DNA from: Frankiaceae bacterium
Lineage (GTDB): Bacteria > Actinomycetota > Actinomycetes > Mycobacteriales > SCTD01
DNA: 64,000 nucleotides
NCBI GenBank assembly: GCA_016650445.1
Contig: JAENVS010000042.1
Location: forward strand, 14,327-78,326
Direction: 5' to 3'
Shown: piece by piece, positions 5,230-16,762 of the stretch
How the letters are laid out: every line of letters starts with the position of its first letter
Position numbering within the stretch: position 1 is the first letter of the stretch
Translations under genes and position numbers: made by a program
Notes under the pieces: model-generated
Seen by the model: only the letters and a program-made list of their open reading frames with translations
What the model was told of the DNA's origin: nothing
Databases searched by the model: none

Positions 5230-5991
5230 TCAGCGGACGAGGTGCCCGCTGACGCGCAGCGCGTCCTTCACCTGGCGGATCGTGAGGGCGCCGAAGTGGA
5301 AGACGCTGGCCGCAAGCACCGCGTCGGCCCCCGCGTCGACGGCGGGAGCAAAGTCCTCGAGGCGGCCGGCTCCGCCGCTCGCGATGACCGGCAGGCGCAC
5401 CTCCCGGCGTACCGCTGTGAGCATCTCCACGTCGTACCCGGCCCTCGTGCCGTCCGCGTCCATCGAGTTGAGCAGGATCTCGCCGACCCCGAGCTCCTCG
5501 CCCTGGGCCGCCCATGCGACGGCGTCGATGCCCGTGCCGGTGCGGCCGCCGTGTGTCGTGACCTCGAAGCCGGAGGGCGTGGTGTCGCCGCGGCGGGCGT
5601 CGACGGAGAGGACGATGCACTGACTGCCGAAGCGGTGCGCGCACTCCCGCAGCAGCTCGGGGCGCTCCACGGCGGCCGTGTTGATGCCGACCTTGTCGGC
5701 TCCGGCGCGCAGCAACCGGTCGACGTCGTCGGGCTGGCGGACGCCGCCCCCCACCGTGAGCGGGATGAAGACCTGCTCAGCAGTACGCCGGACGACGTCG
5801 TACATCGTCTCGCGGTTGCCGCTCGACGCGGTGATGTCGAGGAAGACCAGCTCGTCCGCGCCCTCCGCGTCGTACACGCGGGCCATCTCAACCGGGTCGC
5901 CCGCGTCGACGAGGTCGGTGAAGTTCACGCCCTTCACCACCCGGCCCGCGTCCACGTCGAGGCACGGGATCACGCGGACGGCGACAGGCAC
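5230..5991 (-). CDS. hisF: Imidazole glycerol phosphate synthase cyclase subunit
   Basis: 253 aa. Starts [22 protein letters not shown] and continues with typical HisF (beta/alpha)8 motifs (GADKV, ASGGAG). Confidence 0.92.
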
Positions 5992-6020: not shown

Positions 6021-8480
6021 TCAGCGGCAGTGCCGCCGGCGCCGCGCCTGCAGGACCAGACCGAGCCCGATCATCGTCAGCGCGGCCAGGGATGCCAGGC
6101 GCAGTGGCAGGAACGAGCCCGTGAACGGCAGGACAGCACCGCCGCCACCCCCTCCGTTCGGCGCCGGGGTCGGTGAGGCCACCGCAGGCTGCGGCTCCGG
6201 TGAGGACACGATGACGCCGGGCACGGTCGTGGTGACCGTGTTCGACGGCGTGGCCGGTGTCTGCGCCGAGCCTGCGGTCCCGGCGTTGCTGATCGTGCCG
6301 GGAGGCCAGCTTCCGTCGGCCGCCGTCGGAGGCTGGTCGATGGTCACCGCAAACAGCAACCCACCCAGCGTCTCGCCGGCCTTGAGCGATCCGATGGTCC
6401 AGGTGACGGTCCGCGTCGCCGCGGCGTACGACGCCAGTGCCGCGGGGCCGGCCGAGCCGGCCACGTAGGTCGTCCCCGTGGGGACGACGTCGGTCACGAC
6501 GAGGTTCGTCTGGTCCAGCGTCCCGGTCGCGGTGACGGTGAGCGTGTATGTCAGCGTGCTGCCCACCGATGCCTGCGCGGCGCTGACGGCCTTGACCAGA
6601 GTGAGCCCACCACTGGCGATCGGGTGGCGCGTCTCGCCGGACGGCGTCGTGCCGACGCGGGCGAGGTTCACGATCACGGTGCCCGCGGGCTGACCGCTGG
6701 CGACCGTGACGGTCCAGTGGAAGACGCGCGCGTCGCCCGGCTGCACGGTCCCGGTGTGCCAGGACGCGGTCGTCGTGGCGACGACGTACGTGCCGCCGTC
6801 GGCAATCGATGTGAAGATCGCGCCTGCCGGCAGCACGTCGGTGACCAGCTCGTCACCGAGCTCCACGTTGCCCGTGTTGCGGTACGTGACGGTGTAGATG
6901 ATGGTGCTACCCGGCTGAACGACGGTGCCGCTGACCGGCTCTGCCGTCTTCGTCAGGTCGAACGACGGGTTCTGCACCGGTGTCGGCGGTCGCACTGCCG
7001 GCACCGTCACGGTGTCCGTGGGCGAGGTGACGTTGCCAGAGTGGGCCGACGCGATGTTGACGACGCTGCCGGCGTTGAAGTCAGCCTGCGTGACGGTGTA
7101 CGTCGCGGTGCACGTCACCGTGCCCAGCGGCGCGAGGCCCGCGGCGGGCAGAGCGGGACAGGTCACCGTCGTCTTGCTGTCAGACACGGTGATCGCGGCG
7201 TGGAGCGTCGTGTTGCCGGTGTTGGTCACGAGGTAGCTGTAGTGAAGAACGGTGCCCACGACGGAGTACGACGTCTCGGCCGCGCTCTTGTCGATGCTCA
7301 GCGCCGGCGACTGCACGATCGGGATGTCGAGGGTGTCGGTGTCAGGGGGTGACTGCACGGAGTCGGCGGTGACGGTGTTGGACAGGTTCCCGCCGGTGTC
7401 GATCTCGGCCTGGGTGACCGTGCGGCTGCAGGTGTAGGTCCACGTCTCGGTCGTCTGCAGCTGGTTGTCGCCGTTGGTGTCACCACCGGTCCGCGACGGA
7501 GCGGCGTTGCAACTCGGGTCGGTCACCGTGATGCCGGTCAGGGTGACGTTTCCGGTGTTGGTCACCGCGAACGAGTACGGCACGACCTGGCCGGCGGCGG
7601 TGATCGTCGTCGTCGACGACGTCTTCACCACGGAGATGGTGGCGTTCGTGAAGGACCCGACCTTGCTCAACGGCACCGTCTGGTTGCCCGTGTTGATGCT
7701 TGCGGACAACGCTCCGGCGGTCGCGGCAGAGACCAGGTTGGTGTGGACGTTGCCGCTGGCTCCGCCGGCCGGCAAGACGCTCTTGAGGACGACCCACAGC
7801 TCGACGACGACGGTGTCGCCGTCGTCGAGTCCGCTCACGGTGACGTTGCCGAGGATCTCTTCCGTCGCCCCGCCGCCAGGGTTGGCGAGTGTCGAGGCGT
7901 AACTGTCCACCTTCGCGTCGTTTCCGGGGTCAACGGTGCCGCCGTCAGCCGTGTCGACGAAGGCGCAATACAGCATGTACGCCGGATCGAAGCCGAAGTC
8001 GTCGCCCGACGTGCTGTGGGTGTTGAACCCCGCGGTGAAGGTGATCGTCCCGTTCTCCGGCGCGGTGCTGCCCGAGACCCCGATCTCCATCTCGAACGGC
8101 ACGACCTGACCCAGCACGAGGTCGCGGGGCTGCAGCGAGGTCAGCGCGTCGAGCGCGGTCGGTCCGGGCCCGTACGCAACGGCGTTGCTCAGCGGATCGG
8201 ACGCTCGGCCGGTGCCGCCGCTCGGCGCTGTGCACGGCAGCTGGCTCGGGAGCTTCTTGTCGTAGGTCGGCGAGAACGGGGCGTGGTTCGCCTCGGGGTC
8301 GGCGCCGTACCACTTGAGGTTGTAAGAGCCGGCAGAGGCGTACGACGCCGGAGTCGGCACCAGAACCGCGCCGACCCCTGCGACCAGGGTCAGGGCGGCG
8401 ACCGCCGCAAGCCCGCGCCGAAGCCGGTGCGTGCCGCTGGTCGTCTGTCCACCTTGCCTGTTGCCGCCTGCGCCGATCAT
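6021..8480 (-). CDS. Cell-wall-anchored surface protein with DUF11-type repeats and LPXTG sorting signal
   Basis: 819 aa. N-terminal signal peptide ([21 protein letters not shown]). Four repeats carry the DUF11-like signature ([18 protein letters not shown]; [13 protein letters not shown]; [19 protein letters not shown]; [16 protein letters not shown]). C-terminus is LPFTG, then a hydrophobic stretch, then RRRRH. GGAGG lies 9 nt upstream of the ATG. Confidence 0.8.
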
Positions 8481-8620
8481 GGCCGTCGCCTCCGACTTCG
8501 TCAGTGCCCGAACACACGGACATCTGCGTTCATCGTCATCGCCGCCGGTCCCTCGCGCACCTGCCGGTCGTCACGTCATTCGGTGACCTAGGACCTGTTC
8601 TGCGGGGCGCCAGGTCAACA

Positions 8621-8797
8621 ATGCGTTCCCGGCCGTGGCCGGGCGCGAGAACCAGCGATCGTCGGTTCGCGCAGGTGCGCCGCGCCTACGCGGACCACGA
8701 CAGCGGCGCCGACAGCGACTATGCCGAGCTGACCCAGTCGTGGGACCGCCTGACAGTCGAAGACCTCGATACGGCCGAGGACATCGACGTTGCCTGA
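8621..8797 (+). CDS. Putative antitoxin partner of MazF (unclassified, acidic C-terminus)
   Basis: 58-codon ORF from an internal ATG of the listed 8504-8797 ORF. Its stop overlaps the mazF TTG start by 8 nt. Acidic tail reads DYAELTQSWDRLTVEDLDTAEDIDVA. About 84% G/C at third codon positions. No RHH or AbrB DNA-binding motif is recognisable. Confidence 0.4.
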   Translation: MRSRPWPGARTSDRRFAQVRRAYADHDSGADSDYAELTQSWDRLTVEDLDTAEDIDVA

Positions 8798-9134
8798 GGC
8801 ACTGCACCGCGGCGCTGTCGTCTGGGTGAACCTCGACCCGTCCCGCGGCCGCGAGCAAGCCGGCACCCGGCCAGCGGTCGTGATCGCCAGCGACGGTTAC
8901 CTCGCTAGTGTCCCCGAACTGGTCATCGTCATCCCGGTAACCACCCGCGATCGGAACTGGCCCCACCACGTACGGCTCAGCGGCGAGCAGCTCGCGCTCG
9001 ACCGTTCGAGCTTTGCCATGACCGAGCAACCACGCACGATCGCTCGCGCACGGATCACCGGCCCCGCGGGAATGGTTGGCCCCGACCCCATGGCCGAGAT
9101 CGACCAGTGGCTGAGGGACTTCACCGACCTGTGA
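8790..9134 (+). CDS. mazF: MazF/PemK-family endoribonuclease toxin
   Basis: 114 aa. RGAVVWVNLDPSRGREQAGTRPAVVIASD and VIVIPVTT match the MazF/PemK core. TTG start. Confidence 0.85.
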   Translation: MPEALHRGAVVWVNLDPSRGREQAGTRPAVVIASDGYLASVPELVIVIPVTTRDRNWPHHVRLSGEQLALDRSSFAMTEQPRTIARARITGPAGMVGPDPMAEIDQWLRDFTDL

Positions 9135-9154: not shown

Positions 9155-9562
9155 TCAGGCAGAGGTGTAGCTGAGCTTCCAGGTCGCCCCGGCGCAGCTG
9201 CCGGCCGGATCGTGGAGCTTCACCGGGACGCTGGCCGTGGACTGGCCGTGGGCCGGCACGACGAGACGGCCGGACCAGCTGCCGATCGACAGCGCACTCG
9301 GGGCGCAACCGGGCGAAGCCCCGGTCACGCGAGCGGTGAGCGACCGCACGACGACAGCGGCGGCGGCATCGTTGCGCAAGGTCAGGGACAGCGCGGCCGC
9401 CACGTCAGGGCGGAGCCCCTGGATGCTGCCGCTGATGGACACGTGGGCCGGCTCCTCCATGGCGACGCGCACGAGCGAGACGGGGCTCCCGGGCGAGAAG
9501 AAGGGCACCGCGAGCACAGCGGCGGCGGCGAGCCACGTGAAGCCCCGACCCGCGAAGGCCAT
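9155..9562 (-). CDS. Small secreted protein, unknown function (beta-sandwich-like, two Cys)
   Basis: Trimmed from the 204-aa ORF to the ATG at 9562. That gives a signal peptide (MAFAGRGFTWLAAAAVLAVPFF) and 135 aa. The upstream part of the long ORF overlaps a structured leader. Confidence 0.55.
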   Translation of the reverse strand: MAFAGRGFTWLAAAAVLAVPFFSPGSPVSLVRVAMEEPAHVSISGSIQGLRPDVAAALSLTLRNDAAAAVVVRSLTARVTGASPGCAPSALSIGSWSGRLVVPAHGQSTASVPVKLHDPAGSCAGATWKLSYTSA

Positions 9563-9644
9563 GGGGCTCGCCCCGCGAGGTGCGTCGGACGAACGCACGA
9601 AAGCGACTGCGGCGGTCACGGCGGTCTGCCTTCCGGTCAGGACC

Positions 9645-9725
9645 GCCCGGTTTCGGCAACCCGGCTGGGTACGTGACCCCCGTGGCTTTGCGCCCCCGCC
9701 TCGCGACGGGTTTGCGGTATCGACC
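9645..9725 (-). promoter_or_regulatory. Candidate c-di-GMP-I (GEMM-I) riboswitch aptamer in the leader of the 9155-9562 gene
   Basis: Minus-strand RNA reads ACCGCAAACC-CGUC-GCGA-GGCG-GGGGCGCAAAGCCACGGGGGUCACGUACCCAGCCGGGUUGCCGAAACC. This contains GCAAAnC plus a GNRA-capped hairpin, the CGCAAAGC junction, and a 3' AGCCGGGUUnCCGA block, in the canonical order. Confidence 0.55.
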
Positions 9726-9873
9726 GGTCCGTTGATGTGGACACAGAAGGTGTCGGCGGATTCGGACACCGGGCGCAGAGCCGAACGCAGCGGGCGTATG
9801 GCCAGGACTACCCACCTAGCGGCTGCTCGGAGGGGCTACTCGACACCTGGTCAGCCCGAGATGTCCCGACTTG

Positions 9874-10263
9874 TCAGTCGGTTCCGCCCGTCCATGCGAT
9901 CGCCTCGACCTCCACGAGCATCCGCGGGTCGAGGAGCGCCGCCACCTCGACCATCGACGTCGCCGGGCGGATGTCGCCGAAGACCTCGCCGTGCGCCCGG
10001 CCGACGTCCTGCCAGCGCGTGATGTCGGTGACGTACATCCTGGTGCGGACGACATGCCGGGGTTCCGCGCCGAGCCGCGCGAGCGCATCGATGACGCCCT
10101 GCAGCGCCAGGCGCGTCTGCTCGTACGGGTCCCCCACCGCGACGACCTCGCCCTCGACGGTGGCGGTGCAGCCGCTGACATAGACCGTGTCGCCTGCCCG
10201 CACCGCGCGGCTGTAGCCGATGACCGGCTCCCAGGGCGCCCCGGACGAGACCCGCTCCGTCAT
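9874..10263 (-). CDS. RidA/YjgF-family reactive-intermediate deaminase
   Basis: 129 aa taken from the C-terminal part of the listed 322-aa ORF ([29 protein letters not shown]...SMVEV). ATGA overlap with the priA stop. Confidence 0.85.
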
Positions 10264-10979
10264 GCCGCCGCCGCCAGCGCCTCCGGCAACGTGAAGGCAC
10301 CGGCGTACAGCGCCTTGCCCACGATCGCGCCCTCGACACCGAGCGGCACCAAGGCGGCCAGCGCGCGCACATCGGCGAGCGAGCTGACGCCGCCGGAGGC
10401 CACGACGGGTCGGTCGGTGGCCCCGCACACCCTGCGCAGCAGGTCGAGGTTGGGTCCGGTCAGCGTGCCGTCGCGATGCACGTCTGTGACGACGTAGCGG
10501 GCGCAGCCGTCGGCATCGAGACGAGCGAGGACGTCGAAGAGCTCGCCGCCCTCCTTGGTCCAACCCCGCGCGGCGAGGGTGGTGCCTCGGACGTCGAGAC
10601 CGACCGCGATGCGGTCGCCGTGTGCGGCGATGGCGGAGCGCACCCAGTCCGGCGACTCGAGGGCCGCGGTGCCGAGGTTGACCCGCGCACATCCCGTCGC
10701 AAGCGCCGCCGCCAGCGTCTCGTCGTCGCGGATCCCCCCGGACAGCTCCACCCGTACGTCGAGCGCCCCGATGACCCGGGCGAGCAGCTCGCGGTTGGAG
10801 CCACGGCCGAAGGCTGCGTCCAGGTCGACGAGGTGAACCCACTGCGCGCCGTCACGCTGCCACTGCAGAGCGGCTTCGACCGGGTCGCCGTACGACGTCT
10901 CGCTGCCCGCCTCGCCCTGCACGAGCCGCACAGCCTGCCCGTCAGCGACATCGACAGCCGGGAGCAGCTGCAGCGTCAT
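10260..10979 (-). CDS. priA: Phosphoribosyl isomerase A (HisA/TrpF-type ProFAR isomerase)
   Basis: Trimmed to [22 protein letters not shown] (ATG at 10979). Carries HisA motifs (GGGIRD, ASGGV). The actinobacterial context suggests the bifunctional PriA type. Confidence 0.9.
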
Positions 10980-11296
10980 CTCTTCCCCTTCATCGGCATC
11001 AGCACGACCAGCAGCGGCAGCGCGAACAGCGACACGATCGCAAGACCCAGGCGGGTGCGAGGTTCGACGGTCACCTGCCAGAACACCCATTGCGCGACGA
11101 GCCAGCCGAAGGCCAACCCCAGCGTCACGCGCAGTGGCAGCGCACCGTAGCGCCGTCGGTGGCGCGGCAGCTCCGGCAGCGTCGGCTTCAGGGCGTCGAG
11201 CCGCTCCTGTCGGGCGCGCTTCTTCGCCGCCCGCTCGCGGGCAGCAGCCCGCTCGGCCTCACGCGCCGCCCGGGCCCTCGCCCGTTCCTTGCTCAT
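10976..11296 (-). CDS. Small membrane protein with highly basic N-terminus, unknown function
   Basis: 106 aa from the ATG at 11296. An Arg/Lys/Ala-rich helix ([33 protein letters not shown]) is followed by two TM segments. 4-nt overlap with the priA start; the gene begins 8 nt after the hisH stop. Confidence 0.55.
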
Positions 11297-12510: not shown

Positions 12511-13601
12511 GGGCTGACCTTCCCCAGTGCGGACAGGAACGCGGTGGTCTCGCCCTTCGTGCCGGCGTTGACCCGCAGCCAGCCTGCCAGGCCCGGCCCC
12601 GAGGACACGTCGCGCACAAGGACGCCCTGGTCGAGGAGCCGCTGCCACACGGCCGCAGGGTCGTCGAAAGGCCCGAACAGCATGAAGTTGGCGTCGGTCG
12701 GGACGACCGTGAGTCCGAGAGCCGCGATCTCGCGGACCATCCGGTCGCGCTGCGCCTTGACGAGCTCGACGGTGGCGAGCAGCTCGTTGACCCGCGCCAG
12801 CGCGATTCGCGCCACGACCTGCGTGATCGCCGACAGGTGGTAGGGCAGCCGCACCAGCCGTACGGCGTCGACGACGGCGGGCGACGCCGCGAGGTAGCCG
12901 ACGCGGGCGCCCGCGAGCGCGAAGGCCTTGCTCATGGTGCGGCTCACGATGAGCCGCGGGTAGCACTCCAGCAGGGTCACCGCGGACGGCCCGGCAGCGA
13001 ACTCCGCGTAGGCCTCGTCGACCACGACCATCCCGGGCGCCACGTCGCAGATCGCCGCGATGACCTCGAGAGAGGTGACGGTGCCGGTGGGGTTGTTCGG
13101 CGTCGTCACGAAGACGACGTCGGGACGGTGCTGCTCGACGGCCGCCACGGCGACGTCGGCCGTCAGCGTGAAGTCGCCGAGACGAGGTACACCGACCCAC
13201 GCCGTGCCCGTGCCGGCGGCGAGGATCGGGTGCATCGAGTACGACGGCTCGAACCCGAGCGCGGTGCGTCCCGGTCCGCCGAACGCCTGCAGCACCTGCT
13301 GCAGCACCTCGTTCGACCCGTTGGCCGCCCAGAGCTGCTCGCCCGTGAGCGCGACGCCGGTCCGGTCGCTGAGGTAGTACGCAAGCGAGGCGCGCAGGTG
13401 CACCGCATCGCGATCGGGGTAGCGGTTGAGCGCGAGCCCGGCCTCACCGATCGCCCGCTGCAGGTCGGCCACCAGGGCGGCCGGCGGCGGGTACGGGTTC
13501 TCGTTGACGTTGAGCTGGATCACGTCGGTGATCTGTGGCGCGCCGTACGGCGTCTTGCCTCGCAGGTCGTCGCGGACGGGCAGCTCGCCCAGCCCGGTCA
13601 C
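12507..13601 (-). CDS. hisC: Histidinol-phosphate aminotransferase
   Basis: 364 aa class-II aminotransferase ([17 protein letters not shown] with the PLP lysine). Overlaps the hisD stop. Confidence 0.92.
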
Positions 13602-14881
13602 CGGATCCTTGCCTGCACTGCCTCGACGTGCGCGGCAAGGTCCTCGGCACCGCCGAGCGCCGAGACGTGCGGTGCGACCGCGGCCAGCGCCGCGGCGGAG
13701 TACTCGATGAGGGACATCCGCTTGAGGAAGGACTGCGTGGACAGCCCGCTGCTGAACCGCGCCGTACCGCCCGTCGGAAGGACGTGGTTCGACCCCGCGA
13801 GGTAGTCGCCGAGGCTGACCGGCGTCGCGCTGCCGACGAACACGGCGCCGGCGTTGCGCACCCGCAGCGCCCGCTCGCGCGCGTCGGCAGTCATGACCTC
13901 GAGGTGCTCTGCCGCCCAGGCGTCGACCACTTCGAGGCCGTGGTCGAGGTCGTCGACCAGCACGTACGCCGACTGCCCGGCGAGCGCGGTCTCGACGCGC
14001 TCCCGGTGGCGCGTCGCGGCGACCTGCTTGTCGAGCTCGACGTCGACCCGGTCGAGCAGGTCGGTGCTCGGTGTCACGAGCAGGCAGGCCGCCAACTCAT
14101 CGTGCTCAGCCTGCGCCACCAGATCGGCAGCGACGAACGCCGGGTCCGCGGTGTCGTCCGCGAGGATGGCGATCTCCGTCGGTCCCGCTTCGGAGTCAAT
14201 CCCTACATGACCCTGAACGATCCGCTTGGCGGCAGCGACGTGCACTCGGCCGGGTCCAGTGACGATGTCCACCGGGGGGCAGCCCTCCACGCCGTACGCG
14301 AACATCGCGATCGCCTGCGCCCCGCCGACGGCGTACACCTCATCCACGCCGAGCAACGCGCACGCCGCGAGCACAACTGGGTGGGGCAGTCCGTTCTGCT
14401 TAGGCGGACTCGACACCGCCAAGCTCGTCACACCGGCAACCTGAGCGGGCACGACGTTCATGACCACACTGCTCGGATAGGCGATCAGCCAGCTGGGGAC
14501 GTAGAGCCCAACCCGCTGGACGGGAACCCACCTCTCGGTGACCGTGGCGCCGTCGACCACGTCGACGACCACGTCGGAGCGCAGCTGCGCGGTGCAGACC
14601 CGGCGTAGCCGGTCGGCCGCCTCCTCGAGCGCGGCGCGCACCGCCGGGTCGAGCTCGTCGAGCGCTGCGGTGAGCGCCGCCTGCGGCACCCGCAGCGCGT
14701 CCAGGCGCACGCCGTCGTACTTCTCCGTGGCGGCAAGGACAGCCGCGACGCCGCGGGCTCGCACGTCGTCGACGACGGGACGCACCTGCTCCACGGCCAC
14801 CGCGACGTCGAGGCGGGCGCGGGGAAGCAGGTCCCGCGGGTCGCTGTCCCTGCGACCGCGCAGGTCGATGCGGGTCAGCAC
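13598..14881 (-). CDS. hisD: Histidinol dehydrogenase
   Basis: 427 aa with HisD motifs (GPTE, AQAEHD, GDY.AG.NHVLPT). Confidence 0.93.
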
Positions 14882-14932: not shown

Positions 14933-16762
14933 TCAGCGCACGGGGAGCTCGATCCGGCTCGGAGCGGTCCGGCTTCCGATCGCCACGAGCAGGTCGCCGC
15001 TGGTGCCGTTCGCGTTGGCGACGACGGTCAACCGCAGGCGGTGGCCGGCCGGCACGGTCACGTCGACCGCGCTCAGATCGATGGCGTGGTCCACGAACGT
15101 GGTCCCGGACGACCAGCTGCCCGCCTCGAGCTGGCCGTCGGCCAGTGCGCTGCAGCTGCCCGCGGACGTGCAGTCCTCGAGCCGGATCTGCACCCGCCCG
15201 TTGCCCTTCGCGGCGGCCAGCCGGCTCCAGAGGGTCACCGACGGCACCCCCACGAGCCGAAGAGGTGCATCCAGCGAGCGGGTCAGCACCAGCCGCTCGC
15301 GGGCGGAGGTGGCGTCCAGACCGCTCTTGGTCGGCACCAGGCTGCGACCGGGGCGGCCGTCCCGGTCGGTATCGGGCGGCGGGCCGCCCTGGGTCGGCGC
15401 CGTCGTCGCCAGGGTGTTGCCAGGGCCGGCCGTGAACCAGTAGGTGCTGGCCGGTCGGGCCGCGACCCGCGTCGGGCTGCTCGACGGCCGGGGCGCCGCA
15501 GCGGTCGGGCCGGGTGCAGCAAGGGTGGATGCCGCCGCCGTCCGGAGCGCGCTGGCCGTCGGCGACGCGGCCGGTGCGGCCGACTCCGTGGGTGAGGCGG
15601 ACGACACGCCGGGAGCCGGCGTGGCCTGCACCGACGGCGCGGACGCCCCCGCGTCGACACCGGACGGTGCGGCAGTCGACGGGGCTGCCGACGCCGGCGG
15701 CGCGATCGTCCCGACGATCGCCAAACCCCCCACGCCGAGACCGGCGGCCGCCAGCCGCGCCGCCTCACCGCCCCGGCCGAGGAGCAAGGGGACCTCGGCG
15801 AACCAGGTCAGCGGACCCAGCACCCAGCGCAACTTGCCGAGCGAGATGGACAGGAAGACGCGCACGACATGCGGGTCGAACTGCGACCCCGCGCACGCCG
15901 TCAGCTCCGCCCTTGCCAACGATGCCGACCGCGTCCGGCTGTACGAGCGCGCGGACGTCATGACCTCGTAGGAGTCGGCCACGGAGAGGATGCGCGCCGA
16001 CAGCGCGATCTCCTCGCCCGCGAAGCCGTTGGGGTATCCGAGGCCGTCCCAGCGCTCATGGTGCTCACCGATGGCACGGCCCCAATCACCGAGCCACGGC
16101 ATCAGCCCGGCTGCCAGCCGGACCCCCTCGTCGGGATGGCGACGGACCGTCTCCCACTCGTCGTCATCGAGGGCGTCCGACTTGCACAGAACCGCAGCCG
16201 GCACGGACAGCTTGCCGAGGTCGTGGACGAGTGCCGCCCAGCGGGCGCGTCCCCTCTCCTCGTCGGACAGGCCCATCTCATCTGTCAGCAGGTCGACGTA
16301 GGCCCGCACCCGTTCGGAGTGTCCGCGGGTCCGCTTGTCGTGCAGTCCGAGAACGCCGACCATCGTGACGAGCGTCTCGGCCGCTTCGAGAGGCGGCGTC
16401 GTCGCGCCGTGAGCACGCAGCCGGGCCAATCGGCTCTCCAGGTCGCGGACGCTCGCAGTACGGAGCGTGCGCAGCCGCGAGGGCGCGTGATCGGGGAAGA
16501 CCAGGGACAGCTCGAGCAGGACCGCGAGCGGCAGCACCCGGCGGGCCACCCGGTCGCTGAGATACAGCACCAGGCTCGAGAGACCGAAGATCGCCAGCCA
16601 CCAGCCCAGCCTGGCGAGCCGGGTGTCGCCCGCGGGCAGCAGGCGGCCGGCAAGGATGGCGGTGAGCACCGACAGGATCAGCGGGACGAGCACGACGGCG
16701 AGACGGACCAGCCCGGCCAGGACCGGGTGGGCGGCCCATCGGTCAGTCCGGCGGTCAACCAC
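14933..16762 (-). CDS. Membrane-bound HD-GYP domain protein (putative c-di-GMP phosphodiesterase) with extra C-terminal domain
   Basis: 609 aa. About three N-terminal TM segments. HD-GYP core reads HSERV..LVHDLGK..HHERWDGLGYP. Further hydrophobic segments follow, then an Ala/Pro/Ser linker and a C-terminal domain of about 170 aa of unknown type. Confidence 0.85.
   Translation of the reverse strand: MVDRRTDRWAAHPVLAGLVRLAVVLVPLILSVLTAILAGRLLPAGDTRLARLGWWLAIFGLSSLVLYLSDRVARRVLPLAVLLELSLVFPDHAPSRLRTLRTASVRDLESRLARLRAHGATTPPLEAAETLVTMVGVLGLHDKRTRGHSERVRAYVDLLTDEMGLSDEERGRARWAALVHDLGKLSVPAAVLCKSDALDDDEWETVRRHPDEGVRLAAGLMPWLGDWGRAIGEHHERWDGLGYPNGFAGEEIALSARILSVADSYEVMTSARSYSRTRSASLARAELTACAGSQFDPHVVRVFLSISLGKLRWVLGPLTWFAEVPLLLGRGGEAARLAAAGLGVGGLAIVGTIAPPASAAPSTAAPSGVDAGASAPSVQATPAPGVSSASPTESAAPAASPTASALRTAAASTLAAPGPTAAAPRPSSSPTRVAARPASTYWFTAGPGNTLATTAPTQGGPPPDTDRDGRPGRSLVPTKSGLDATSARERLVLTRSLDAPLRLVGVPSVTLWSRLAAAKGNGRVQIRLEDCTSAGSCSALADGQLEAGSWSSGTTFVDHAIDLSAVDVTVPAGHRLRLTVVANANGTSGDLLVAIGSRTAPSRIELPVR

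Follow-up and report, generated by a model that had tools for sequence, protein, structure and literature searches.

A GEMM-I riboswitch with cytosine at position 20 in the histidine operon of a Frankiaceae bacterium

Genes at the locus and identity of the aptamer

The window, that is, the whole 64-kb stretch of Frankiaceae DNA analysed here, carries a histidine operon on its minus strand, and the locus described below lies inside this operon. The genes are as follows:

14933-16762, minus strand: HD-GYP gene
13598-14881, minus strand: hisD, then hisC, hisB and hisH
10260-11090, minus strand: hisA, in the his operon before the RidA-family gene
9874-10275, minus strand: RidA-family gene, preceding the riboswitch and its gene
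9155-9619, minus strand: regulated gene, with a 154-aa product (N-terminal hydrophobic signal or anchor, C-terminal Ig-like beta-sandwich)
8790-9134, plus strand: PemK/MazF-type toxin gene, convergent to the riboswitch gene
8504-8797: possible antitoxin ORF upstream of the mazF/pemK-type gene, without Pfam hit
6021-8480, minus strand: 819-aa DUF7507/DUF11/DUF7927 repeat wall protein with LPFTG, a hydrophobic segment and a basic tail
5230-5991, minus strand: hisF, last in the listed order of the his locus

An earlier sequence-only reading of the window had proposed a c-di-GMP-I (GEMM-I) riboswitch here. The minus-strand sequence that it quoted from 9563-9725 is present letter for letter, and the three conserved GEMM-I blocks were all found in the order claimed. 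The call was borne out by the covariance models of Rfam. When the entire 64-kb window was compared with all 4227 Rfam families by cmscan, RF01051 (c-di-GMP-I) matched at 9726-9652 on the minus strand over model positions 1-87 of 87, with 54.1 bits (E = 8.6e-8) against a gathering score of 35. Given this score and E-value, the aptamer is real, far beyond chance. There were two Rfam matches in the window, RF01051 being the sole riboswitch and the other an mraW RNA at 54285-54184. The latter motif (RF01746, 54184-54285, minus strand), which scored 65.1 bits (E = 1.2e-11; gathering score 50), is what one expects in an actinobacterium as the leader of the dcw/mraW cluster. A permissive local scan added just RF03167 (c-di-GMP-I-GGC), with 52.7 bits and under its cutoff of 59. 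The c-di-GMP-II model (RF01786), suggested alongside c-di-GMP-I, gave no match in either of these scans, whole-window or permissive local; the c-di-GMP-I half of that suggestion stood. The RF01051 label is routine and expected from any Rfam-based annotation. The window RNA is a genuine riboswitch of the GEMM-I type, and the gene whose leader contains it encodes a small protein that is secreted or anchored.

The HD-GYP enzyme that had been noted 5 kb away was recovered as PF13487 (HD_5) with its HD and HHERWDGLGYP motifs. The mechanical ORF of 609 aa contains an HD-GYP domain (residues 137-299) together with a PepX_C-like region (488-583), and may represent two genes or a fusion.

In two relatives, L001 and L002, the gene order is RidA, riboswitch and small gene, with hisF directly after. 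It follows that, in the window, mazF and the adhesin gene were inserted locally and stand outside the conserved unit; the 6021-9134 stretch (toxin, ORF and LPFTG protein) looks like an insertion into the his operon. An LPXTG adhesin gene had been named as a neighbour on the same strand. This is the gene for the LPFTG protein; it does not belong to the conserved unit, and the mazF-like gene stands between it and the small gene. Co-regulation with the adhesin was rejected, since adhesin and mazF are missing from the syntenic L001 and L002 and mazF is convergent.

Architecture and conservation of the aptamer

All parts of the aptamer lie on the minus strand:

9728-9742: 15-nt block GUCCACAUCAACGGA just 5' of P1, nearly invariant in the five relatives including it
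9727-9647: full aptamer, P1 to P1, 82 nt
9721-9727: 5' strand of P1 (P1a), CCGGUCG, invariant in the relatives
9716-9720: P1a-P1b linker AUACC, 5 nt (Rfam model alignments, numbered via published pairs)
9690-9715: P1b (Rfam alignment), with GC/GC junction pairs, AAA, a 6-bp stem CCCGUC/GGCGGG, a GCGA tetraloop and C44
9687-9689: AAA after C46, the A at 9689 being A47; CGCAAAG is conserved
9658-9686: P2 hairpin GCCACGGGGGUCACGUACCCAGCCGGGUU (Rfam alignment), with an A bulge, an AG bulge and a distal stem GGG/CCC
9656: equivalent of C92 in its UUG-C-CGA (UUGCCGA) context, invariant
9647-9655: 3' strand of P1, CGAAACCGG, invariant in 6/6 relatives

The features of GEMM-I membership are present, namely P1, P1b with its GNRA loop, P2 with its AG bulge, C44/G83, A47 and C92. 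In a manner typical of the family, the 5' strand of P1 is paired to CG-AA-ACCGG (9655-9647), and the helix has a CG/CG top and a 2-nt A bulge. The last G of the 3' strand (9647) has two possible partners, one within P1 and one with which it would open the stem of the platform hairpin described below. In P1b, the GCGA loop is a GNRA tetraloop, and the equivalents of the closing pairs G21-C46 and C22-G45 are found. C44 of the inter-helix pair is the C in GCGC within the P1b segment; its partner G83 sits in the AG bulge of P2 in a CAGCC context, and the pairs of P2 are intact. From this arrangement, we infer the C44-G83 tertiary pair itself.

P2 lacks the tetraloop receptor, a feature of 'type 1' members only, and its distal part comprises 3 bp and a 7-nt loop. 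The model insert of 16 nt is reduced to 4 nt in the window aptamer. The second hairpin had been described as very short and as possibly marking a minimal variant. Its shortness holds (3 bp plus the 7-nt loop); the form is nothing special and is common, with P2 inserts of 16-18 nt occurring in about 20 of about 124 other GEMM-I aptamers among the matches listed.

With Vc2, the Vibrio cholerae prototype of RF01051, the window RNA shares P1a, P1b and P2, the GNRA loop, the GC/GC junction, A47, C92, C44-G83 and the AG bulge, as well as location in a 5' leader ahead of a gene of the 'environment/membrane' type. It differs from Vc2 in having C20 for G20 and a 5-nt linker for one of 6 nt, in its short P2 that lacks a tetraloop receptor, a form often seen in other family members, and in its platform, which is a hairpin abutting the start codon and not an intrinsic terminator.

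The aptamer stands upstream of four homologues of the downstream gene (L001, L002, L005 and L007) and is also present in L147, which came from a DNA scan. Across these lineages, identity is 96-100% in the aptamer, 68-77% in the coding sequence and 57-64% in upstream DNA. In L007, the distal part of P2 has GAC/GUC instead of GGG/CCC, a double compensatory change. High aptamer identity together with this compensatory change is the signature of a functional RNA, and the comparison between lineages shows the window aptamer, at the level of sequence, to be under strong purifying selection. The two remotest homologues (56-59% identity), those of L003 and L004, sit in another genomic context and have no aptamer upstream; thus, the protein family is not always controlled by the riboswitch.

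The GUCCACAUCAACGGA block deviates by a one-base insertion in L147 and by one extra A in L005, and the DNA further upstream has only the 57-64% identity given above. The block could be a promoter or transcription start region, or a 5' element of the RNA. It could form a small GUCC/GGAC hairpin. A scan for a sigma-70 consensus promoter found none, and no promoter or transcription start was placed. Within P1b, the window copy alone among the relatives has G at 9693 (minus strand), where the relatives and the family consensus have A43 (GGGG-G-CGCAAAG in the window versus GGGG-A-CGCAAAG); L146 and L148 share this G.

Position 20 and the ligand

In Vc2, the pairs G21-C46 and C22-G45 close P1b, while G14-C93 and C13-G94 top P1a (PMC11705072). 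These published pairs anchor the numbering, so that G20 is the base immediately 5' of the 'GC' in GCAAA. In the window, the G20 equivalent at 9716 (minus strand) is C, and the AUACC linker holds no G at all. At the two other ligand contacts, A47 (9689) and C92 (9656), the family base is kept, and the A47 equivalent is invariant in the relatives. C20 is common to the window, L001, L002, L005 and L147; three of these four relatives were found via the protein, independently of base 20.

The contact is a central one. G20 uses its Watson-Crick edge to read the Hoogsteen edge of ligand G-alpha (PMC5888326, PMC6140456, PMC4744006), C92 is Watson-Crick paired to ligand G-beta (PMC5888326, PMC6140456), and A47 intercalates between the two ligand bases (PMC4744006, PMC5888326). 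Mutation of G20 in Vc2 costs about 30,000-fold in affinity (PMC4744006). Natural aptamers with G20 bind c-di-GMP, while those with A20 constitute the c-AMP-GMP class or are bispecific, and still bind c-di-GMP only by means of an adenine that is protonated (PMC6140456). Adenine is the only characterised natural substitution at this position, and with it specificity changes to c-AMP-GMP (PMC6140456). In the literature searched, with primary papers incompletely covered, no report on the ligand of a C20 aptamer was found, and G20C appears in only one MD paper, as a single mention without binding data. Judged by its bases, the window aptamer thus agrees with the defined c-di-GMP-I class at two of its ligand contacts and deviates at the third. 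The sequence-only reading had spoken of a c-di-GMP switch; its GEMM-I fold stands, while the replacement of G20 by C, which it overlooked, means that c-di-GMP as the ligand has to be argued for and is not a given.

Two kinds of natural GEMM-I variants can be compared with the window. GEMM-Ib (c-AMP-GMP, Geobacter Gs1761) has the same fold, and both deviate at position 20 alone, where the Watson-Crick edges of C and A share their order of donor and acceptor. The window base is, however, the pyrimidine C and not the A20 by which GEMM-Ib is recognised, and its host is an actinobacterium and not Geobacter, without a link to cytochrome or exoelectrogenesis genes. RF03167 (GGC) and RF03168 (UAU) are, like the window with its 'CAC' pocket, variants at positions 20/47/92. 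The window falls below the cutoff of RF03167 (52.7 versus 59) and has A47 (CGCAAAG) rather than G47 (CGCGAAG); it differs from RF03168 in having C, not U, at positions 20 and 92. No family in Rfam corresponds to a CAC pocket. The ligands of RF03167 and RF03168 are not known to have been established when these families were defined.

The occurrence of C20 was surveyed. In a collection with each species represented by one genome, a core pattern that allowed any base at position 20 matched at least 120 loci. Among the matches listed, position 20 of about 124 core-matched aptamers was G in 111, A in 12 and U in 1, and C was found in 0 of the approximately 124 genome aptamers outside the window clade. 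The U20 aptamer, from the actinobacterium Pengzhenrongella frigida (L019, 1379-1441), has canonical A47 and C92 and is another uncharacterised pocket variant. In a metagenome collection, the same core with C20 required was found in 43 stretches. Leaving out four false or doubtful matches (L137, L154, L158 and L159) gave 39, L147 included, a set picked by pattern whose counts give no frequency of C20.

These C20 aptamers fall into about 25 sequence clusters at 12% divergence, and many of them are nearer to some G20 aptamer than to other C20 aptamers. All of those tested (20/20) reached Rfam gathering scores, with 57-70 bits. In 33 distinct C20 P1b sequences, 98.9% of cells were paired, with compensatory changes at 6/6 stem pairs and a covariation score that was equalled in 0/500 shuffles; the distal P2 stems of other C20 aptamers also close with differing sequences, and so covary. 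The linker takes one of two forms, either the 6-nt A-N-A-A-A-C of the consensus with G20 alone changed, or the 5-nt A(U/A)ACC of the window. Hence, C20 is no error but a natural state of the GEMM-I fold that recurs and is selected. Several C20 aptamers pass the score of RF03167 while keeping A47; therefore, that score reflects GC-rich stems and not the variant bases.

The genes behind the C20 aptamers are typical GEMM cargo. They encode a GGDEF cyclase, response regulators, a chemoreceptor (MCP), prepilin-type proteins, a polysaccharide lyase, a metalloprotease and a giant surface protein (1693 aa, Ig/fn3). Such cargo argues for a cyclic-dinucleotide ligand, and the HD-GYP phosphodiesterase gene 5 kb from the window aptamer counts toward the same reading; cargo and nearby HD-GYP gene together fit a cyclic dinucleotide. 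Neither the cargo genes nor the HD-GYP gene separate c-di-GMP from c-AMP-GMP.

Tandem GEMM-I aptamers were seen in L166 (2055-2235, minus strand) and L130 (7569-7750, minus strand), and in L166 one copy has G20 while the adjoining copy has C20. In L129 and L139, C20 aptamers with the AUACC linker are followed by an intrinsic terminator (stem and U-run) and a prepilin-type (N_methyl) gene, and thus the same type of aptamer is coupled to transcriptional platforms in other phyla.

A loss of the ligand contact might also signify decay. If the window RNA were a non-functional relic of a GEMM-I riboswitch, the missing G20, the 5-nt linker and the change of A43 to G in the window copy only among its relatives would all be accounted for. 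Yet the aptamer is 96-100% identical where the coding sequence is 68-77% identical, compensatory changes keep P2 and P1b paired, three different 3' strands maintain the platform hairpin (see below), and C20 recurs widely with intact helices. Decay is therefore strongly disfavoured, and we regard it as very improbable.

The Watson-Crick edge of cytosine presents an amino donor beside a protonatable ring nitrogen, in the same order as that of adenine. From this chemistry follow two ways in which a pocket with C20 could work. A protonated C could read the Hoogsteen edge of guanine, as in C+.G-C triples, with c-di-GMP kept as the ligand. Alternatively, a neutral C could read the Hoogsteen edge of adenine, as A20 does, which would favour c-AMP-GMP.

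We favour the first of these and consider c-di-GMP the probable ligand, with modest confidence. In such a complex, C92 would pair with one guanine of the ligand and C20, probably protonated, would read the other in a C+.G Hoogsteen pair; affinity for c-di-GMP would likely be lower than in G20 aptamers. Two published results count against c-di-GMP: G20 is a defining contact, as the approximately 30,000-fold loss in Vc2 illustrates (PMC4744006), and A20 brings a change of specificity (PMC6140456).

The rival reading is a different ligand in the same fold. Here C20 would re-tune the pocket toward 3',3'-c-AMP-GMP, both dinucleotides or some other cyclic or linear dinucleotide. Position 20 is the known specificity switch (PMC6140456), and in the window family C has replaced G20 in lineages found independently of that base. 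C20 occurs in about 25 clusters, often nearest to G20 aptamers, and a G20 and C20 tandem as in L166 would suit two inputs. Some HD-GYP enzymes are reported to degrade cGAMP (bioRxiv 10.1101/600031). A neutral C, having the amino-donor and ring-N-acceptor edge of adenine, could moreover take over its role in reading an adenine Hoogsteen edge. On the other hand, the C20 cargo is indistinguishable from ordinary c-di-GMP cargo, the window holds no known cGAMP synthase, C+.G Hoogsteen pairing is a simple route by which guanine recognition would be kept, and A20 aptamers still bind c-di-GMP through a protonated base (PMC6140456). Tandem GEMM-I aptamers for a single ligand are also known (PMC4759541). 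Taken together, a different ligand appears possible, though distinctly less likely than c-di-GMP. We hold with similar reserve that the C20 ('CAC' pocket) aptamers of many lineages, among them the conserved Frankiaceae clade of the window, may form an undescribed specificity class, whether for c-AMP-GMP, for both dinucleotides or for c-di-GMP gated by pH.

In the GEMM-I fold, no base other than that at position 20 is known to determine which ligand is chosen, and here it is a conserved cytosine. Some 39 more C20 aptamers, in sequence contexts that are unrelated, show that this natural solution recurs. If c-di-GMP is bound, the tolerance of the c-di-GMP pocket extends to a pyrimidine, possibly protonated, as reader base. 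If another ligand is the true one, a further ligand class is hidden inside RF01051, as was earlier the case with c-AMP-GMP.

Start codon, expression platform and product

The leader downstream of the aptamer contains the following elements, all on the minus strand:

9620-9647: platform hairpin GGCGGUC-CUG-A-CC GGAA GG-CAG-GACCGCC, predicted at about -20 kcal/mol
9617-9619: proposed start codon GUG, 0 nt past the hairpin, in frame in 6/6 relatives
9580-9598: hairpin GUGCGU...ACGCAC of the sequence-only reading, within the coding sequence and absent from relatives

The mechanical ORF runs through the aptamer, and the NCBI gene call starts at ATG 9561, giving 135 aa. This ATG, which the earlier reading had also used, is not conserved and was discarded, whereas the GUG at 9619 lies 35-36 nt past the aptamer core and in frame with the ORF in 6/6 relatives. 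The next 19-29 codons after the GUG vary in length and sequence among the relatives. The N-terminal extension is conserved at the protein level between the window and P0002, and for P0002 and P0005 gene callers chose a start equivalent to GUG 9619. The conserved in-frame GUG, the extension shared with P0002 and the gene-caller starts all point to translation from 9619-9617; the start is most likely GUG 9619, with a coding sequence at 9619-9155 of 154 aa.

Two leader hairpins had been described between aptamer and start codon, and both exist (9646-9620 and 9598-9580). With the start at GUG 9619, only the first belongs to the leader and the second is inside the coding sequence, so that its role as a leader or switch element falls away. 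The first, the platform hairpin, is predicted in 6/6 relatives with -19.8 to -22.4 kcal/mol. Its 5' strand, GGGCGGUCCUGACC, is invariant, while its 3' strand comes in three versions (the window; L002 and L005; L147, L001 and L007), all of them complementary to the 5' strand, though in different registers. The hairpin begins right where the 3' strand of P1 ends, an SD-like purine run (GGAAGG, CGAAGG or AGAGG) occupies its loop and upper 3' stem, and the GUG follows 0-1 nt past the stem. In L147, L001 and L007, a free P1 3' strand lengthens the platform stem over the GUG.

The absence of a U-tract, and hence of an intrinsic terminator between aptamer and gene, had been noted before and was confirmed. 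The sole terminator-like match, at 9524-9506, was rejected as such because it lies within the coding sequence, over PFF codons. The lack of a terminator and a conserved hairpin with three different 3' strands that abuts an in-frame GUG favour translational control, as does the position of hisF downstream in L001 and L002, since early termination would there exert a polar effect on a gene that is essential. Judging from these features of the leader, control is probably exerted on the initiation of translation.

The hairpin could instead act on transcription, either as a U-tract-less, 'I-shaped' actinobacterial terminator or through access for Rho, the latter having been raised in the sequence-only reading too. 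It is GC-rich, at about -20 kcal/mol, its start adjoins the aptamer, and in L147, L001 and L007 it shares nucleotides with the P1 3' strand; moreover, a canonical SD is not conserved (L001 has UUGG or AGG only). However, a U-run after the hairpin is lacking in 5/6 relatives, the start codon stands at the foot of the stem in 6/6, which has the look of a translational operator, and attenuation would starve the essential hisF in L001 and L002. We thus think a transcriptional mechanism unlikely. As a whole, the evidence leads us to put forward, as the reading that we hold somewhat probable, a functional cis-acting riboswitch of the GEMM-I fold with a cyclic-dinucleotide ligand, most likely c-di-GMP, and translational control.

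In translational control of this kind, ligand-dependent closure of P1 would change how far the initiation region is occluded by the hairpin and the free P1 3' strand. Closure would have such an effect because the end of P1 is the start of the hairpin, the SD-like run is in its loop and the GUG at its foot. By nearest-neighbour energies, P1 and the platform hairpin coexist (-44.0 versus -42.3 kcal/mol without P1). The SD-like run has a partition-function accessibility of about 0.5 in every modelled state. When the aptamer was enforced, the GUG and codons 2-4 became more accessible in 4/5 relatives with 30 nt of downstream context, a shift of the start region that is inconsistent between relatives and varies with context length. 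Because the competing strands are invariant, covariation is uninformative on alternative pairing. The stem extension over the GUG of the L147 type and the accessibility shift in 4/5 relatives give a weak preference, in these models, for a switch in which ligand binding would raise initiation (ON switch).

Two other folds were considered and rejected. An extended P1 that opens the hairpin (5' GGACCG with CGGUCC) is worse by 12.5 kcal/mol (-31.5 versus -44.0). A long-range RNAalifold structure in which the platform and start region are paired to the 5' strand of P2 has no covarying pair, and L007 breaks this fold while keeping P2. A 7-bp GGUCACG/CGUGACC complementarity is specific to the window.

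The product had been described as an uncharacterised small secreted protein, and it does have a hydrophobic N-terminal signal or anchor and no family match. With a hypothetical protein from a Frankiaceae MAG it shares 100% identity; it has no match in Pfam or NCBIfam, and belongs to only nine 90%-identity clusters among 5.8 billion proteins. AlphaFold2, run on a 9-sequence alignment, predicts a seven-strand beta-sandwich at residues 58-154 (pLDDT of about 90) that holds two invariant Cys; the N-terminal 57 residues, which include the hydrophobic segment WLAAAAVLAVPFF, are unstructured in the model. Foldseek against the PDB gave generic Ig-like matches only (E >= 3e-3), of the macroglobulin, PapD/MSP, CBM and transglutaminase-barrel types. 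On the predicted structure, the product is an orphan Ig-like beta-sandwich protein, predicted to be exported or at the surface, which is in keeping with GEMM cargo. An orphan family of exported Ig-like proteins in Frankiaceae is thereby tied to cyclic-dinucleotide signalling, and its start codon corrected.

A further motif, PFFSPGSPVSLV, lies just after the hydrophobic segment (window 9470-9505, codons 39-50) and is invariant or nearly so in 9/9 homologues. Since it is more conserved than the usual c-region of a signal peptide, it may serve in processing, in sorting or as a strand donor.
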